A DNA stretch of 64,000 bases from Minisyncoccota bacterium (lineage in GTDB: Bacteria > Patescibacteriota > Minisyncoccia > SW-4-49-11), in NCBI GenBank assembly GCA_032117235.1, contig JAULZW010000001.1, positions 10,762-74,761 of the forward strand. The letters are read 5' to 3'. Positions 2,633-50,866 of this stretch are shown piece after piece (position 1 is the first letter of the stretch; each line of letters starts with the position of its first letter). Made by a program: the position numbers and the translations under genes. The notes below the pieces were generated by a model, which saw only the letters and a list, made by a program, of their open reading frames with translations, ran no database searches and was not told the DNA's origin.

Positions 2633-2904
2633 TTTTGTCCTCCTTTGGAGGAGGTGGCACGAAGTGCCGGTGGTGGATAAAGTTGAAGTCAAAGTTTGTT
2701 TTATAATAAGATTTAATTTCAAAGTATATTTTTCTGACCATCCACCCTCCCCGTCGCAAATGGGATTTACTCCTGTGAAACCTCACGGTTTCCCAACCTT
2801 CCTTCACGGGAAAACTACCGTTTTCCCGACCCCTTTCCCAAACTTTCAGTCTATTACGGGTACTCCCTCCGCCTGCCTGCGGTAGGTAGAAAGGGAGACA
2901 AAAT
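2633..2904 (+). repeat. GC-rich structured repeat element, copy A (about 270 bp). The termini are imperfect inverted repeats (TTTTGTCCTCCTTTGGAGGAGG ... CCTCC..GGGAGACAAAAT).
   Basis: A high-GC island in AT-rich DNA. About 85 percent identical over the conserved cores to copy B at 27211-27458. It contains multiple internal hairpins (GGCAC-GAA-GTGCC, GAAACC-TCAC-GGTTTC, CGGGAAAAC-TAC-GTTTTCCCG). Confidence 0.6.
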
Positions 2905-3064
2905 ACAGGCGACTGAAAGCTTAGTCCTACGATGTTGATAGATGTTCGGTAGAGGGTTTATACTCACACAAATATAGACAAAAGCTTAAAAATATGATAT
3001 GTTTCTGATTGTCCAGGCTCTAAAGTGATTTAGAGTCAAACTTCCACCCTGAGGAGTGCTTTTT

Positions 3065-3499
3065 ATGGATGATTCAGTACCAAAAACTGAAGGATACGAT
3101 GATAGGCCATATTCTCTTTTAGCTCTCATGCTCGGGTTAAGTCCAGATAACTGCTCTAAATTAATCGGTATCATTGAAGAGTCTGGAGGAGATAAAGCAG
3201 AAGCACTTTTAATATTTTTAAGCCGTATCTTTAGAGAGGGTTTAGATATAACAATAGAAAATTTCGAAATAACTTTGGGGTATATTAAGCAAGTTAACTA
3301 TGCTGTAGAACAAAAGGAAGTAGAATATGGAAGACCACTGATCGTAAAAGAAATGCAAGAGATAATAGGTGCAGAACATGATATAGCACCAGAAGAAGAT
3401 TGGCTAGACCCTGAAGGCTTTATTGATGAACCAGAAGGCGATCCTAACACCTTAACTTTAGAAGAAGAAGTTATTTTGGGAATAATCTTTCATCCTTAG
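3065..3499 (+). CDS. Hypothetical acidic protein, about 145 aa.
   Basis: ORF with a GAGGAG Shine-Dalgarno about 9 nt upstream of ATG 3065. The ORF track starts it at a GTG at 3056. A strong terminator follows. Confidence 0.5.
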   Translation: MDDSVPKTEGYDDRPYSLLALMLGLSPDNCSKLIGIIEESGGDKAEALLIFLSRIFREGLDITIENFEITLGYIKQVNYAVEQKEVEYGRPLIVKEMQEIIGAEHDIAPEEDWLDPEGFIDEPEGDPNTLTLEEEVILGIIFHP

Positions 3500-3501
3500 C
3501 T

Positions 3502-3533
3502 CCCCCCCGCGTGCGATGCGGGGGATTTTTATT
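3502..3533 (+). terminator. Intrinsic terminator.
   Basis: CCCCCGC-GTGCGAT-GCGGGGG hairpin followed by ATTTTTATTT. Confidence 0.75.
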
Positions 3534-3592
3534 TAGAGGCTTTGCGATTATTTGCTATAATAGATTTATAATAAAGATAATGACTGCAAGCT

Positions 3593-6154
3593 ATGCCTTC
3601 TCCGATGATGACTCAATTCTATGAATTAAAACAGGCATATCCTAATGATATTTTGTTTTTTCGCCTAGGGGATTTTTATGAAATGTTTGGAGAAGATGCG
3701 AAATTAGCAGCTCCTATCCTTGATTTAGTGTTAACTGCTCGCAAGAATACGATAGATGGAAATATTCCAATGTGTGGAGTGCCTTATCATTCTTCAGCTC
3801 AATATATCAAAAAGCTGATTCGGGCAGGATATTCAGTGGCTATATGTGAGCAACAAGGATCAGCTAAGGATTCTAAGGGTTTGGTGACGAGAAAAGTGGT
3901 TAAAGTTATCACTCCAGGGACGGCTCTGCTGGATATAGAAGCTACCGAATCAAGGTATATAGCTAGTGTTTATACTCACAAAAACAATATATATCTAGCT
4001 TTAGCCGATTTGGGGACAGGTCTTTTTGAGGTTGGTAAATTTATGGAGTCAGAACTTAAGGATGTCTTGCAATCTAAACAAGTCAAAGAGATTATACTCT
4101 CAGAAAATAGTGAGTTATTTGAAAAACTCCAAAAATTAAATATTAGAATTGTGGCTGAATCTAAATGGAGTTTTCAATTAGAGCGTGCGCTTGAAGTTTT
4201 GACTAAACATTTTAATGTTAGCAGTATGACTGGCTTTGGTTTTGAGGTTGATGATATGCGATTGTCTCCAGCTGGAGCTTTGCTTGGTTATCTTATTTAT
4301 ACTCAACAGGAGGATTTGAAGCATATTACTAAATTGCAGATTATGACTTTGGATAAATATATGAGACTAGACTCTCAAACTATTCAAAATCTAGAGTTAT
4401 TTTATCTATCAAGAGCTAGTCAAAAGGGCAAAAGTTTTTATCAAGCTATTAATTATACTAGAAATCCTCTGGGTTCAAGAATGTTGAAAAACTGGATATT
4501 AGCTCCATTATTAGATGTCAAAGCTATTCAGGCTCGTCAAGAGCATATTCAAAATTATATAGACACTCCTACTAAGATTACAGAAACCAGAGACTTATTA
4601 GCTCAGATTGCAGATATAGAGCGAGTTTTGGCGAGGCTGTCTAGTAATGTGGGTGGTCCTAGAGATATGCTGTTATTATCTAAAAGTTTTGAGTATATTG
4701 CAGGAATTCTAAAACTAGATATAGCAAATTATACTAAATTAGCTCAAAAAGCTTTGTTAAAACTTGAGCCTTTAAAAGTTCAATTGCAAAAAGCTTTAAG
4801 AGATAATGTCCCAATTCTAGCTAGGGATGGTGGTTTTGTGGCTAAAGGGTATCGGGATGATATAGATGAATTATTAAATTTAAGTCAAGGGGGTAAAGAG
4901 TGGTTGTTGGAATTACAATCTCAGGAACAAGCTCGCACAGGTATAAATTCTCTCAAAGTAAAATATAATAAGGTATTTGGCTATTATATAGAGATTAGTA
5001 ATGCCTATAAAAATCAAGTTTTACCAGATAATTATATTAAAAAACAGACTCTAGCTAATGCGGAGCGATATATTACCCCAGAATTAAAAGAGTTTGAAGA
5101 AAAAATTCTCAGTTCAGAAGCTGAGTTACTAGGTTTAGAGCAAATTGTTTTTGAGGAGTTAAGACAGGCAATTATAGCTGAGTCAGAGCAAATTTATACA
5201 ATTTCCCAAACTATTGCCTATATTGATTGTATACAATCAGGAGCTAAATTAGCCATAGATTGGAATTATAATCGTCCTAAAATTATTAAAAATCAAAATC
5301 TGTATATAGAAGCTGGCCGACATCCAGTACTGGAGCAGTTAATTACTGAATATATACCCAATGATTGTAAATTAGCTGAACCAGATCATTCTCTTATGTT
5401 AATCACGGGACCGAATATGGGAGGTAAGTCTACCTATATTCGTCAAGTGGCTTTGATTGTGCTTTTGGCTCAAATGGGATATTTTGTGCCGGCTAATAGT
5501 GCCAAGATTGGGGTGGCGGACAGGATTTTTACTAGAGTAGGAGCCTCAGATAATATGAGTGAGGGACAGAGTACTTTTATGGTAGAGATGTTGGAGGTAG
5601 CTAATATTTTACATAATGCCAGTAAGTCTAGCTTGATTATTTTAGATGAGGTTGGTCGGGGCACTTCTACTTATGATGGAATGAGTATAGCCAAGGCTTT
5701 GATTGAATATATTCATAATACTATTAGAGCCAGAACTCTCTTTGCCACTCATTATCACGAATTATTAAGTCTGGAAGGAGATTTTGAAGGGGTGGTGAAT
5801 TATCAGGTTATAATTCAAGAGTCTAATGAGAGTATTCTCTTTTTACACCGTATAGAACAAGGTGGCGCTGATAAAAGCTATGGGATAGCTATTGCCAAAT
5901 TAGCTGGATTTCCTGCAGATGTGTTAGAATTAGCTAAGAGAGCTCTTATACAATATGAGCAAAAAAAATCTCAATTGTCATTTTTAGAAATCCCAATTAT
6001 AGCTAATAGTAATAATCTAAAACAAGAAGTCAACCCACATATAAAGCAGTATCAGAAGCTCTTACAAGATATACATTCCAATAATCTGAATGACTTAACT
6101 CCAATGCAGGCTTTAGCTATATTAGATGAATTACAAAAAAACAATCCACTATGA
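3593..6154 (+). CDS. mutS: DNA mismatch repair protein MutS.
   Basis: 853 aa. The N-terminus MTQFYELKQAYPNDILFFRLGDFYEMFGEDA and the Walker A motif GPNMGGKST are classic MutS. Confidence 0.95.
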   Translation: MPSPMMTQFYELKQAYPNDILFFRLGDFYEMFGEDAKLAAPILDLVLTARKNTIDGNIPMCGVPYHSSAQYIKKLIRAGYSVAICEQQGSAKDSKGLVTRKVVKVITPGTALLDIEATESRYIASVYTHKNNIYLALADLGTGLFEVGKFMESELKDVLQSKQVKEIILSENSELFEKLQKLNIRIVAESKWSFQLERALEVLTKHFNVSSMTGFGFEVDDMRLSPAGALLGYLIYTQQEDLKHITKLQIMTLDKYMRLDSQTIQNLELFYLSRASQKGKSFYQAINYTRNPLGSRMLKNWILAPLLDVKAIQARQEHIQNYIDTPTKITETRDLLAQIADIERVLARLSSNVGGPRDMLLLSKSFEYIAGILKLDIANYTKLAQKALLKLEPLKVQLQKALRDNVPILARDGGFVAKGYRDDIDELLNLSQGGKEWLLELQSQEQARTGINSLKVKYNKVFGYYIEISNAYKNQVLPDNYIKKQTLANAERYITPELKEFEEKILSSEAELLGLEQIVFEELRQAIIAESEQIYTISQTIAYIDCIQSGAKLAIDWNYNRPKIIKNQNLYIEAGRHPVLEQLITEYIPNDCKLAEPDHSLMLITGPNMGGKSTYIRQVALIVLLAQMGYFVPANSAKIGVADRIFTRVGASDNMSEGQSTFMVEMLEVANILHNASKSSLIILDEVGRGTSTYDGMSIAKALIEYIHNTIRARTLFATHYHELLSLEGDFEGVVNYQVIIQESNESILFLHRIEQGGADKSYGIAIAKLAGFPADVLELAKRALIQYEQKKSQLSFLEIPIIANSNNLKQEVNPHIKQYQKLLQDIHSNNLNDLTPMQALAILDELQKNNPL

Positions 6155-8863: not shown

Positions 8864-9130
8864 TTTTTTGTCCTCCTTTGAGGGAGGTGGCCTTTAGGCT
8901 GGAGGTGGACTGAGCTAATTCCCCTCTCGAGGGGTGGACAGCTTTGCTGGACGGGGTGGATTGTTTTGGCCTTTGAGCTTCTGTATTTTGTCTCCCTTAG
9001 GAGGGAGTACCCGCAGGGGGAGGGTGGAGTACTATTTAATATATTTTTCCACCCCTTCTCCCTCCTAAACAAAGTATAGAAGGGAGACACCCCTCAAGAG
9101 GGGAATTTTTAGCTCACAAGCCCCTCCACC
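8864..9130. repeat. GC-rich structured repeat element, copy C. A composite, more diverged copy.
   Basis: It has the 5' module TTTTGTCCTCCTTTGAGGGAGGTGGC in direct orientation. It also has an inverted copy (8985-9013) of the A/B 3' module (ATTTTGTCTCCCTTAGGAGGGAGTACCCG). Two CCCCTC-N2-GAGGGG palindromes are present. Confidence 0.5.
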
Positions 9131-9658
9131 ACATTAAAACTCACTCTACAAAACCTACACGATGTATTATATTTTATACATACTATGGACCAAGATGAGA
9201 TATATATCTAGACAAAGGGAGTAGAAGAAATTACTGCTCTTTAGTGCTACACATAACATGAAAATAATAATAGGTATTGACAAAAGCGAGGGAATATGAT
9301 ATGGTCTATGTGATCTTTTGTGCTTTAATGATGAAGTCTCCTCACTCTCAACTGTGCCCTCAAGTATTTCAAGCTGTAAAGCTCATGTCCGAGGAAGAGA
9401 TATCCAGATCATGCAAGCAAGATGTTCGAACAGCTCTTTTTTGTATTCAGTACTATGCTGAGTATAGAGTCGCCGATAAAATAAATGCGTTTAATACTTT
9501 AAATGAACTAAATTTCCTTATATTACGGCTGCTGGTTCTCGAGGTACTTATGCCCGAGAACATAAAGCATATGGTGAGGAAGGAGAACCTTATCCTTGCT
9601 CTCAAGAATATAAAGCTGCTATTGCCCCTGCTCATCGAATAATTGTAATAAACTTCCA

Positions 9659-27053: not shown

Positions 27054-27210
27054 TATAAAATATAAAGTTACAATTGTATAATGCACTTTATCAAATATAT
27101 CACAATTTTAATTTTTTGTCTATTGTTTGTAATAGATGAGATGATCGTAGACAAATTGCAAAATAAAAAGTTAAAGGATGGAAGGAACACATAAAGTATT
27201 ATATAATTCA

Positions 27211-27458
27211 CTGTCCTCCTTTGGAGGAGGTGGCACGAAGTGCCGGTGGTGGATAATTAGTAATTTATACGTTAGATTTATGCTTGGATATCTTTTCAAT
27301 CTATACTCTGTCCACCCTCCCCCGTCGCAAATAGAATTTGCTCCTGTGAAACCTCACGGTTTCCCAACCTTCCTCCACGGGAAAACTCCCGTTTTCCAGA
27401 CCCCTTTCCCAAAGGCTAAAGCCTTTTTACGGGTACTCCCTCCAAAGGGAGACAAAAT
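27211..27458 (+). repeat. GC-rich structured repeat element, copy B (about 250 bp).
   Basis: Shares an identical 42-nt 5' module (CCTCCTTTGGAGGAGGTGGCACGAAGTGCCGGTGGTGGATAA) with copy A. A long near-identical core (CCACCCTCC..CGTCGCAAAT...CCTGTGAAACCTCACGGTTTCCCAACCTTCC..CACGGGAAAACT.CCGTTTTCC.GACCCCTTTCCCAAA) and the same 3' terminus (GGGAGACAAAAT) are also present. Confidence 0.6.
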
Positions 27459-27507
27459 AAATTTCAATTTTAAATTTTTGTCTATTGTTTGGGACATAAG
27501 AATCTAT

Positions 27508-49269: not shown

Positions 49270-49803
49270 CTAAATGGAAGCAGTAGTCCAAATCTCCTCT
49301 ACATCATCTAATTCTTCGATGATTTCAATGATAGCTTCTAACTTTTCTCGAGCCTCTTCAGTAATTTTAGTCGGGATATTTACTTTATACTCTTGCTCTC
49401 TGACAATCTCCTCAAACATCCAAATCACTGATCCACTAGCCCCAAGACTACCCCCATTTTTGGATAAAAGATGACGTAAATCAGCCACAGTACGATTGCC
49501 ATTATCGGTATAGGTCTTGATCAGAAGCCCAACCCCCTCAGGACCAAATCCTTCATAAATCACAACTTGCCCATTTGTATTAGCAGCCTTTTCTAATATA
49601 CGATTAATATTGTCTTTTGGCATATTAACTTCTTTTGCCTTCTCGAGAGCTAAGCGGAGTTCTGGATTCATAGCAGGATCCGTAGAACCTTTGCGAGCCG
49701 CAATTTGAATAAGTTTTACCACTTTAGAAAAATTTTGAGCTTTGAGTTTATCTGTAGCAGCTTTTTTATGCTTAATTTTAGAAAATTTATTATGCCCAGC
49801 CAT
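49270..49803 (-). CDS. yebC: YebC/PmpR-family transcriptional regulator, a shortened 177-aa form.
   Basis: MAGHNKFSKIKHKKAATDKLKAQNFSKVVKLIQIAARKG..DP..NP.LR. Confidence 0.85.
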   Translation of the reverse strand: MAGHNKFSKIKHKKAATDKLKAQNFSKVVKLIQIAARKGSTDPAMNPELRLALEKAKEVNMPKDNINRILEKAANTNGQVVIYEGFGPEGVGLLIKTYTDNGNRTVADLRHLLSKNGGSLGASGSVIWMFEEIVREQEYKVNIPTKITEEAREKLEAIIEIIEELDDVEEIWTTASI

Positions 49804-49876
49804 AGCTTTATTATTACTTTACTAAGTATAATTATACCATAAAATTAGCTTATTTTCAAGGATTGGGGGGTGATTT

Positions 49877-49900
49877 ATCCTCCAAAGGAGGACAATTTTT
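49877..49900. repeat. Solo copy of the repeat-family terminal palindrome (ATCCTCCAAAGGAGGACAATTTT).
   Basis: TCCTCCAAAGGAGGA is a perfect palindrome matching the TIR module of elements A and B (CCTCCAAAGGGAGACAAAAT). Confidence 0.4.
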
Positions 49901-50024
49901 ATTCTGATTTGCTGTTATTAGACTGGGAATATATATCCTTTTGTCTACGATTTACTCATCTCGTACATAATATTGTGTGATTGAGAGAGAGGTGATATAC
50001 TAAAATTAGATTGAATATAATTGT

Positions 50025-50195
50025 ATGAATAAATCATCAAAACAAGTAAATCAAAATTCTAAAAAAAGCTATAGACCAGCTTATCATTTTGACGATGCTC
50101 TCAGAGCACTTACAGAAGATGTTAGAAAAATTATAGAAAAAGAAGAAAGAGAGCAAAATAAGATGGAATTATCTTATGGAGCAAATAAGAAATAA
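50025..50195 (+). CDS. Small ORF (56 aa), a candidate antitoxin overlapping the start of the downstream PIN gene.
   Basis: Translates as MNKSSKQVNQNSKKSYRPAYHFDDALRALTEDVRKIIEKEEREQNKMELSYGANKK. It overlaps the PIN start by 20 nt, as is typical of VapBC pairs. Confidence 0.35.
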   Translation: MNKSSKQVNQNSKKSYRPAYHFDDALRALTEDVRKIIEKEEREQNKMELSYGANKK

Positions 50196-50708
50196 ACATC
50201 TAATATTGGATACAAATTTGCTAATTAACATAGTAAAAAATACAGATATATTTTTAGATTTCACTAAAAAATTGAAAGCCTAAATGTAAAATCTGTAATA
50301 GATCAAAGTATTAAGTTTGAGTTTTTGAGAGGTTGTAGTACTAAAACAGATATACAGACAAAAGAAAAATGGCTAGATTATTTGTTGGGGTCTAATAGGA
50401 TGGAATTACCTGTAGATAAAAATATATTTGAAAAAGCTAGGCTTATATCTAATATATACTGTAGAAAAAACCCTAGATATCTAAAACAAATATCTTTTGG
50501 AGATTGTTTGATAGCAGCACAAATGCTTAAATATAATAACACTAGAGATTCACTTTATATAGCGACAATAGATAATAACGACTTTCCAACCTTTATATTT
50601 AATAGAGTAGAAATAATTACAATTTATGATGATAATAATATCTTTAATATAGGTATTTATGGGATTAATCAAAAGTCTTTTGCCGATAAAGAAAAAGATT
50701 TTATTTAG
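50176..50708 (+). pseudogene. PIN-domain (VapC-like) toxin gene disrupted by a frameshift.
   Basis: The N-terminal frame gives MEQIRNKHLILDTNLLINIVKNTDIFLDFTKKLKA and stops at 50281-50283. The remainder (...ISFGDCLIAAQMLKYNN...IATIDNNDF...) continues in another frame that opens at 50268. The conserved PIN Asp motifs are split between the two frames. Confidence 0.5.
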
Positions 50709-50732: not shown

Positions 50733-50866
50733 ATAGGATGAGGTATCACGAAGTGGTTGGTGTAGATTGAGCCTTGCACCTTGGAGTTTCCATGGATGTT
50801 TTCCCTCTCGTGGGGTCGCCGACTCTAAGAAAAATAGAGGGATAAACTCTCCGCTACGAAAGTCCA
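50733..50866 (+). repeat. GC-rich structured repeat element, copy D (short and diverged).
   Basis: GGATGAGGTATCACGAAGTGGTTGGTGTAGA aligns with GGAGGAGGTGGCACGAAGTGCCGGTGGTGGA of copies A and B. Both base pairs of the hairpin are changed compensatorily (GGCAC/GTGCC becomes ATCAC/GTGGT). Confidence 0.4.

Follow-up and report, generated by a model that had tools for sequence, protein, structure and literature searches.

Introduction

Small repeats of the MITE, REP/BIME and BOX-like modular kinds are well known. The Correia elements of Neisseria (CREE/NEMIS), ERIC and RUP are small and non-coding, have terminal inverted repeats of ~26 nt and target duplications, and occur in many intergenic copies, often by promoters; when single-stranded, they can form a long hairpin. 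The REP, REPIN and BIME sequences of E. coli are GC-rich imperfect palindromes between genes, found as inverted doublets and as mosaics of several types in alternating orientation, and E. coli BIMEs bind nucleoid, gyrase or IHF-like proteins. BOX of Streptococcus pneumoniae is an intergenic, modular repeat (boxA, boxB and boxC) with a variable number of modules and a stable predicted structure. GC-rich palindromic mobile modules of several classes, nested by insertion in an AT-rich small genome, are represented by the GC clusters of yeast mitochondria and the Rickettsia palindromic elements. The tiny, streamlined genomes of CPR bacteria are generally considered repeat-poor, and a search of the full-text literature, screened in part by title and abstract, yielded no account of repeats like these from Parcubacteria, Patescibacteria or CPR.

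Here we analyze a repeat family found in a 64-kb stretch of DNA (the window), in which an initial annotation had marked two copies, A and B, as either an ncRNA family or a MITE. The family differs from Correia elements, ERIC and RUP in having a variable 5-bp duplication where theirs is TA, ends that read TG..CA, and, as its interior, a variable GC-rich hairpin mosaic in an AT-rich genome; there is no sequence similarity. Whereas REP, REPIN and BIME sequences consist of GTAG and one palindrome, the units here are ~45 nt long with two hairpins and a TTTTGTC head, many copies lie inside a terminal-repeat element with target duplications, and no RAYT gene was seen at the loci. BOX modules keep a fixed order and a single orientation, in contrast to the units here, which pair inverted and nest in each other's loops. 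Yeast GC clusters and Rickettsia elements belong to other lineages and have other sequences, and the latter are often intragenic, a position taken by 0 of 58 copies here. The nested-loop mosaic is the unusual trait of the family. We consider it likely that A and B are copies of a previously undescribed non-coding, non-autonomous mobile repeat family, a structured MITE or BIME-like mosaic, from a small Paceibacteria (CPR) clade.

Results

Copies A and B are mosaics of short hairpin units

The window is AT-rich (mean GC 32.6% over 64 kb), and its core genes, as read from translations, include mutS, mutL, dnaJ, pnp, ribosomal proteins, rpoA, suf genes, polA and uvrA. Copy A (2633-2904) lies directly after tRNA-Leu(taa) and its terminator, as first described, and resolves into the following features.

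2476-2563: tRNA-Leu(taa)
2573-2588 plus T run: terminator of tRNA-Leu(taa)
2633-2678, plus strand: unit a, with TTTTGTC, hairpin 1 (TCCTCC-TTT-GGAGGA), hairpin 2 (GGCAC-GAA-GTGCC), then GGTGGTGGAT
2679-2739: AT-rich spacer, the loop of the doublet, fast-diverging yet falling into sequence families
2740-2904, minus strand: unit b, reversed, ATCCACCCTCCCC ... TACGGGTACTCCCTCC..GGGAGACAAAAT, interrupted by two nested modules
2753-2854: M module, 102 nt, with four hairpins (GCAAAT/ATTTAC, GAAACC/GGTTTC, GGGAAAAC/GTTTTCCC and AAACT/AGTCT)
2871-2889: mini-hairpin GCCTGCCTGCGGTAGGTAG, nested in the loop of unit b hairpin 1
2905-2930, plus strand: decayed copy of another GC module (ACAGGCGACTGAAAGGTCGCCCCTACGA in relatives), beside copy A

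Owing to AT-rich sequence in its middle 60 nt, 2633-2904 has a GC content of 46% (window mean 33%) rather than the ~55% first given. Inverted repeats form its ends (TTTTGTCCTCCTTTGGAGGAGG and CTCCCTCC..GGGAGACAAAAT), each with its own palindrome, and the hairpins GGCAC-GAA-GTGCC and GAAACC-TCAC-GGTTTC were both recovered, all as annotated; the loop of the third hairpin is TACC and not TAC. While the short terminal repeats are real, they are the ends of an inner hairpin doublet and not transposon ends, and the repeat unit is not a 270-bp block, which is instead a mosaic of ~45-nt modules. In unit a, GGTGGTGGAT forms the 5' strand of the central stem, and in unit b the M module expands the loop of hairpin 2. 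The spacer is not hypervariable, as copies share families of spacer sequence. Copy A has neither outer terminal repeats nor a target duplication.

Copy B adjoins tRNA-Thr and tRNA-Tyr, in agreement with the initial annotation, and reaches outward to 27128-27505, beyond the 27211-27458 first assigned.

27128-27154, plus strand: left outer terminal inverted repeat, intact, TGTAATAGATGAGATGATCGTAGACAA
27155-27211, plus strand: left arm, AT-rich, conserved in related loci L037 and L039
27212-27458, plus strand: core, comprising unit a (27212-27254), spacer (27255-27309) and reversed unit b (27310-27458) with the M module (27324-27427)
27459-27505, plus strand: right arm with a decayed outer terminal repeat, TTGTCTATTGTTTGGGACAT versus TTGTCTACGATGTTTCTCAT in relatives

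The identical 5' module shared by the two copies was confirmed, at 45 nt by BLAST (unit a) rather than 42 nt, and a 103-nt core common to both is 93% identical (BLAST). An identity of about 85% had first been given over the cores; the mean column identity is 85% in a MAFFT alignment of 2620-2920 and 27198-27475, short flanks included. Copy B forms one subfamily with the long-form copy of L039, with 82.7% identity over 376 nt including the arms.

Two further observations concern the surroundings of copy A. After tRNA-Leu(taa), the motif GAAAGTCGGAG(T/C)CATGTGTGAG (2606-2629 in the window) is present in four genomes, and a close variant follows tRNA-Arg in L050 (about 5735-5780); a tRNA trailer element or a further repeat are possible explanations. 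Downstream, the region 2935-3535 holds a 147-aa ORF (3056-3499) with no Pfam match, preceded by a conserved promoter/leader and followed by a terminator that is also conserved (CCCCCCCGCGTGCGATGCGGGGGATTTTT). At the orthologous position, L047 (1827-2273) has an unrelated 148-aa ORF, and L034 and L009 have a different, partly broken one. The region looks like a variable-gene slot within a conserved frame.

Inverted doublets recombine several unit types

Alignment of the copies shows that the core is an inverted doublet of ~45-nt two-hairpin units round an AT-rich spacer. Four of the unit types are the following; there are more, unit e among them.

Unit a: TTTTGTCCTCCTTTGGAGGAGG TGGCACGAAGTGCC GGAGGTGGAT
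Unit b: TTTTGTCTCCCTTTGGAGGGAG TACCCGTAGGGG GAGGGTGGAT, the reverse complement of the 3' end given in the initial annotation
Unit c: TTTTGTCCCCCTTCGGAGGGGG AAGCCTGAAAGGC GGGGGTGGAT
Unit d: TGTCCCTCGCTGGCGAGGG TGGCACGGAGTGCC GGGTGTGGAC

Doublets occur as a+b', a+c', c+b', d+b' and a+d' (the prime marking the reversed unit), and solo units occur too. The unit ends (..GGTGGAT and ATCCACC..) pair across a spacer of 20-70 nt. At other loci there are about 19 copies of the M module, within units of several types, and a 19-nt mini-hairpin (GCCTGCCTGCGGTAGGCAGG) can lie, facing either way, in the hairpin-1 loop of either unit, in other copies within unit a. Hairpin-2 loops are mostly G-N-A triloops (GAA, GGA, GCA and GTA) closed by C-G, a motif that is unusually stable in single-stranded DNA. 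We also asked whether the AT-rich spacer might vary in the manner of a CRISPR, bridge-RNA or omega-RNA guide; the families of spacer sequence that copies have in common led us to reject this. For an IS200/IS605-derived PATE one would expect subterminal hairpins that face the same way at both ends, neither inverted ends nor a duplication, and a constant tetra- or pentanucleotide next to the left end; the core ends here are inverted copies of each other, and the core flanks are T-rich, not fixed.

This arrangement raises the question of whether the GC-rich units are a system of the REP/REPIN/BIME type, in which a domesticated Y1 (HUH) transposase, either a RAYT or an IS200/IS605 TnpA, would recognize single-strand hairpins and spread them independently, with the outer MITE as a mere carrier. 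The inverted doublets resemble REPINs; the mixed unit types in alternating orientation, as at cluster C of the window, L066 and L068, resemble BIMEs; the location is strictly intergenic; and naked cores, such as A and a cluster in L011, have no duplications. The C-G-closed triloops of hairpin 2 provide a lead in the same direction, as does GTAG, which is limited to some hairpin-2 loops and some other modules, in or beside them. However, the units, with two hairpins each, exceed REPs in length, their conserved head is TTTTGTC and not the GTAG or GTGG of REPs, and in about 470 kb of sequence, at about 8 kb per locus, no Y1/RAYT-like ORF was found beside them. We regard this explanation as unlikely.

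The hairpins covary, and both strands fold

We built a covariance model from 21 short copies and searched 410 kb of related loci with E values up to 0.001, which gave 162 matches, or about 95 distinct copies once both-strand matches were merged. In a model-based alignment of 65 matches, 93.5% of cells are paired, compared with 45-64% when partners are slid, and both sides have changed in 19 of 28 pairs; no shuffle reaches the observed values. Dropping five opposite-strand duplicate rows left 60 copies, with 94% paired and both-side changes in 18 of 28 pairs. The hairpins are thus maintained by compensatory change. Since the structure guided the alignment, and since unit types differ from one another in much of what varies, the result means that corresponding hairpins persist with different sequences; it does not imply independent compensation of every substitution. 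The initial annotation had assumed that a MITE would show no structural covariation, which does not hold here. The covarying hairpins indicate a structured MITE and may have a role at the level of RNA or single-stranded DNA.

Strong covariation across 60 copies would also be expected of a structured ncRNA family (multi-copy small RNAs, or cis RNA elements such as stabilizers or processing sites) under RNA-level selection, with mobility secondary. In keeping with it, copy A folds much better than its shuffles (z of -4.8 on one strand and -3.0 on the other), the M module on its G-rich strand has GTGA and GGGA loops closed by C-G, and G.T pairs outnumber A.C mismatches on the aligned strand (60 versus 37). 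This excess, however, is weak and biased by the model-fitted alignment, and the comparison failed to identify a folding strand. Both strands fold well, a single copy gives covariance-model matches on either strand, and relative to co-directional genes the orientation is the same in 11 cases and opposite in 21. Units are found shuffled, solo or truncated, and the orientation of A is inverted between orthologues: in L009, L034 and L047, the spacer from tRNA-Leu to mutS holds a short-form doublet oriented opposite to copy A, so that a doublet occupies this spacer in four genomes. No promoter or terminator was found framing A or B. We rejected a terminator function of the element itself, because both ends read T-run, hairpin ... 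hairpin, A-run, with no 3' T tract on either strand.

The Rfam comparison points the same way. The reported lack of a match to RNase P, tmRNA, SRP or 6S was borne out: no Rfam 15 family, including group II intron domains, HEARO and omega RNAs, reaches its gathering threshold on A or B, and the only Rfam matches at this threshold are the five tRNAs. The best other scores on A and B are at most 19 bits (E at least 0.36), and a group II intron D1-D4 model at 12.7 bits (E = 4.4) was dismissed. An ncRNA gene is therefore not supported, and a family of structured ncRNAs selected at the RNA level appears quite improbable.

Outer terminal repeats and target duplications

Many cores are enclosed by AT-rich arms with imperfect inverted repeats of 27 nt at their outer ends, TG(T/A)A..AGATGAG-N4-5-TCGT(A/C)GACAA, so that the element ends read TG...CA. 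Such outer repeats (TGTACGAGATGAGGTAATCGTCGACAA and TGAATAAGATGAGATGCATCGTAGACAA) bound 12 complete copies (232-420 bp), of which genome loci contributed eight and real metagenome matches four, and conservation between copies stops exactly at TG and CA. The elements (230-420 bp) have no coding capacity; their only ORFs are artefacts crossing the GC core. The search for target-site duplications proposed by the initial annotation was fruitful: perfect 5-bp duplications flank four of the 12 complete copies (ATTTT, GAGTT, AATTA and GTATC), which has a P of about 7e-7 given a local null of 0.006 per copy. Three more match at 4 of 5 positions, and five have no duplication.

Filled and empty sites were also observed. 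L007 reads TCAA-ATTTT-[element]-ATTTT-TTG, and the empty site in L039 is TCAAATTTTTGG; the long-form element of L039, of the copy B subfamily, is absent from the orthologous site of L007. A 330-bp cluster in L011 is missing in L042. Copy B has no 5-bp duplication at its flanks but a 24-nt direct repeat (27104-27127 and 27465-27489), located just outside its left terminal repeat and in its right arm. The TAGACA -35 box of a promoter predicted for tRNA-Thr/Tyr (27122-27094, minus strand) comes from the left copy of this direct repeat. One explanation would be that a promoter arose from the end of an older element; the other, that element ends imitate the -35 consensus found locally.

The flanking motif TTGTCTACGAT..CTCATCT was also considered as an outward sigma-70 promoter. 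This reading was rejected because conservation stops at TACA/TTCA in the would-be -10 box, with the last two bases variable, and also because the motif pairs are inverted round cores with 5-bp duplications. Genuine promoters here have the form TTGAAA/TAGACA-N17-TGnTATAAT.

A transposase or autonomous element with the same ends was sought in the window, in 410 kb of related loci (55 loci) and in the ~10 real metagenome matches, and none was found; multi-copy ORFs, ORFs between GC islands and a Pfam scan of selected ORFs likewise revealed no transposase. The metagenome scan used a loose terminal-repeat pattern, and most of its 120 matches, apart from the ~10 real ones, arose by chance in GC-rich sequence. 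Another repeat, AG-rich and about 210 nt long (L092:6800-7009, L168:1390-1601 and L149:450-656), starts with the same X-type terminal repeat (TGTA(C/T)GAGATGAGGTAATCGTAGACAA) as the family and has no GC-rich units and no matching second end.

Further loci of the family in the window

The further loci reported at 8864-9130, 50733-50866 and 49877-49900 are all related to A and B, the first and last having fuller limits of 8864-9132 and 49877-49967.

8866-9132: cluster C, with a unit a-like sequence (plus strand, 8866-8909), unit e (plus strand, 8917-8961), unit b (plus strand, 8986-9029), a spacer and reversed units (9049-9132)
9192-9215, plus strand: solo remnant resembling an outer terminal repeat, AAGATGAGATATATATCTAGACAA
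49877-49967, minus strand: truncated element with outer terminal repeat TGTACGAGATGAGTAAATCGTAGACAA, an X-type arm and hairpin 1 only
50733-50866: decayed mosaic of a degenerate unit a, then GC modules GTAGCGGAGAGTTTATCCCTC and TAGAGTCGGCGACC on the minus strand

The window holds 4-5 loci of the family, amounting to ~1.2 kb, or roughly 20% of all its intergenic DNA. The covariance model matches A, B and two places in 8870-9104, and weakly 49793-49893. Cluster C (8864-9132) contains at least four units in both orientations, with scores of 63.7 and 22.4 bits. The degenerate unit a at 50733-50866 is identical at 26 of 31 aligned positions, with one 2-nt gap.

The truncated element at 49877-49967 lies directly upstream of the yebC promoter (TTGAAA-N17-TGgTATAAT), where the orthologue L004 has a full element. 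Such positions, between transcription units and often just upstream of promoters (yebC, the tRNA-Thr operon), could suit a host cis-element acting in DNA, i.e. a nucleoid, gyrase or IHF-like binding array of the kind known from E. coli BIMEs, or an insulator between genes. We consider this highly improbable, given the target duplications, the variable orientation and content, and orthologous sites that have the element in one genome and lack it in another.

The region 50025-50708 of the window contains a 56-aa ORF followed by a stop-split PIN-like ORF (50176-50283 and 50325-50708), whose PIN score of 21 bits is below the Pfam cut-off. It looks like a decaying toxin-antitoxin pair. Repeat remnants lie on its flanks, and the orthologue L004 has another ORF there.

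The family is confined to a small clade and to intergenic DNA

We scanned a collection of genomes from 185,579 species with the 3' module (CGGGTACTCCCTCC, 0-30 nt, GGGAGACAAAA) and found 55 loci in about nine MAGs. By title these are Paceibacteria/Parcubacteria, except for CALMJI01 ('uncultured bacterium') and CAZYEN01 (Saccharibacteria); several MAG titles bear sampling dates from 2003 and 2015, which points to a metagenome time series. Three of the MAGs have 12-14 exact 3'-module matches each, with at least that many copies per genome. No copy was found in IMG/VR or the GenBank phages.

None of 58 copies overlaps a long ORF; 32 lie between tandem, 11 between divergent and seven between convergent genes, and eight are at contig edges. 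By our own raw count, a tRNA lies no more than about 350 bp from roughly 13 of the 55 loci, which is at most a mild enrichment. In L008 (1924-1996), ARAGORN predicts a tRNA with a two-base anticodon and unassigned identity right beside a repeat copy; the tRNA may be damaged, or repeat hairpins may have been miscalled. GC-rich repeat islands lie on both flanks of ORFs encoding a MazF/PemK toxin, a YhcG PDDEXK nuclease and a RhuM-family protein (L043:6248-6649, L046:457-855, L055:6509-7525 and L030:2715-3356), and accessory genes seem to be located in repeat-rich spots.

Discussion

The initial annotation left the choice between an ncRNA and a MITE. At the level of the family, the MITE side gains support from the terminal inverted repeats, the 5-bp duplications, the filled and empty sites, the many copies per genome, and the content and orientation that vary between orthologous loci, while the ncRNA gene gains none. 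A MITE carrying a REP/BIME-like hairpin mosaic is the best-supported reading.

In the mechanism that we propose, the outer tier would be a MITE of 230-420 bp that inserts into AT-rich intergenic DNA with a 5-bp target duplication, presumably through a DDE-type transposase acting in trans. DDE transposases of the IS3, IS21, Mu or Tn7 kinds would be compatible with TG..CA ends and a duplication of 5 bp. The inner tier consists of the GC-rich ~45-nt two-hairpin units, usually as an inverted doublet, with unit types freely recombined and modules nested in loops; these units may spread and rearrange by recombination or by insertion aimed at hairpin loops. Their hairpins may be kept because the single-stranded form matters, either as DNA in mobilization or as RNA when the element is transcribed through. 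Copy B would then be a long-form core inside a MITE with its left end intact and its right end decayed, and copy A a naked long-form core in a repeat hot spot after tRNA-Leu.

Several points weigh against the MITE reading: no transposase was found in the window, the related loci or the metagenome matches, copy A lacks the repeats and the duplication, and five of the 12 complete copies have no duplication. The doublet found in the same spacer of four genomes could have been retained for function, and pure junk DNA would not require compensatory hairpin upkeep. There is a small chance that the hairpin units are an independent system acting on folded single strands, with modules inserted into or templated from loops in either orientation (the M module in hairpin 2, the mini-hairpin in hairpin 1), kept paired by selection, spread by a CPR enzyme and perhaps co-opted as RNA or promoter-proximal DNA. 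The structured MITE remains our preferred reading, and the family is probably selfish, with quick turnover between sister genomes.

The family has several implications for the study of these organisms. Its GC islands will be mistaken for RNA genes, which calls for caution in annotation. MAGs are also likely to be fragmented by it: of the related contigs with copies, several extend over just a few kilobases. The elements directly upstream of promoters are a possible source of promoter-proximal variation. Finally, as a mobile mosaic that makes up ~20% of the intergenic DNA of the window, with copies that differ between sister genomes, the family provides a marker for strain-level evolution in Paceibacteria.
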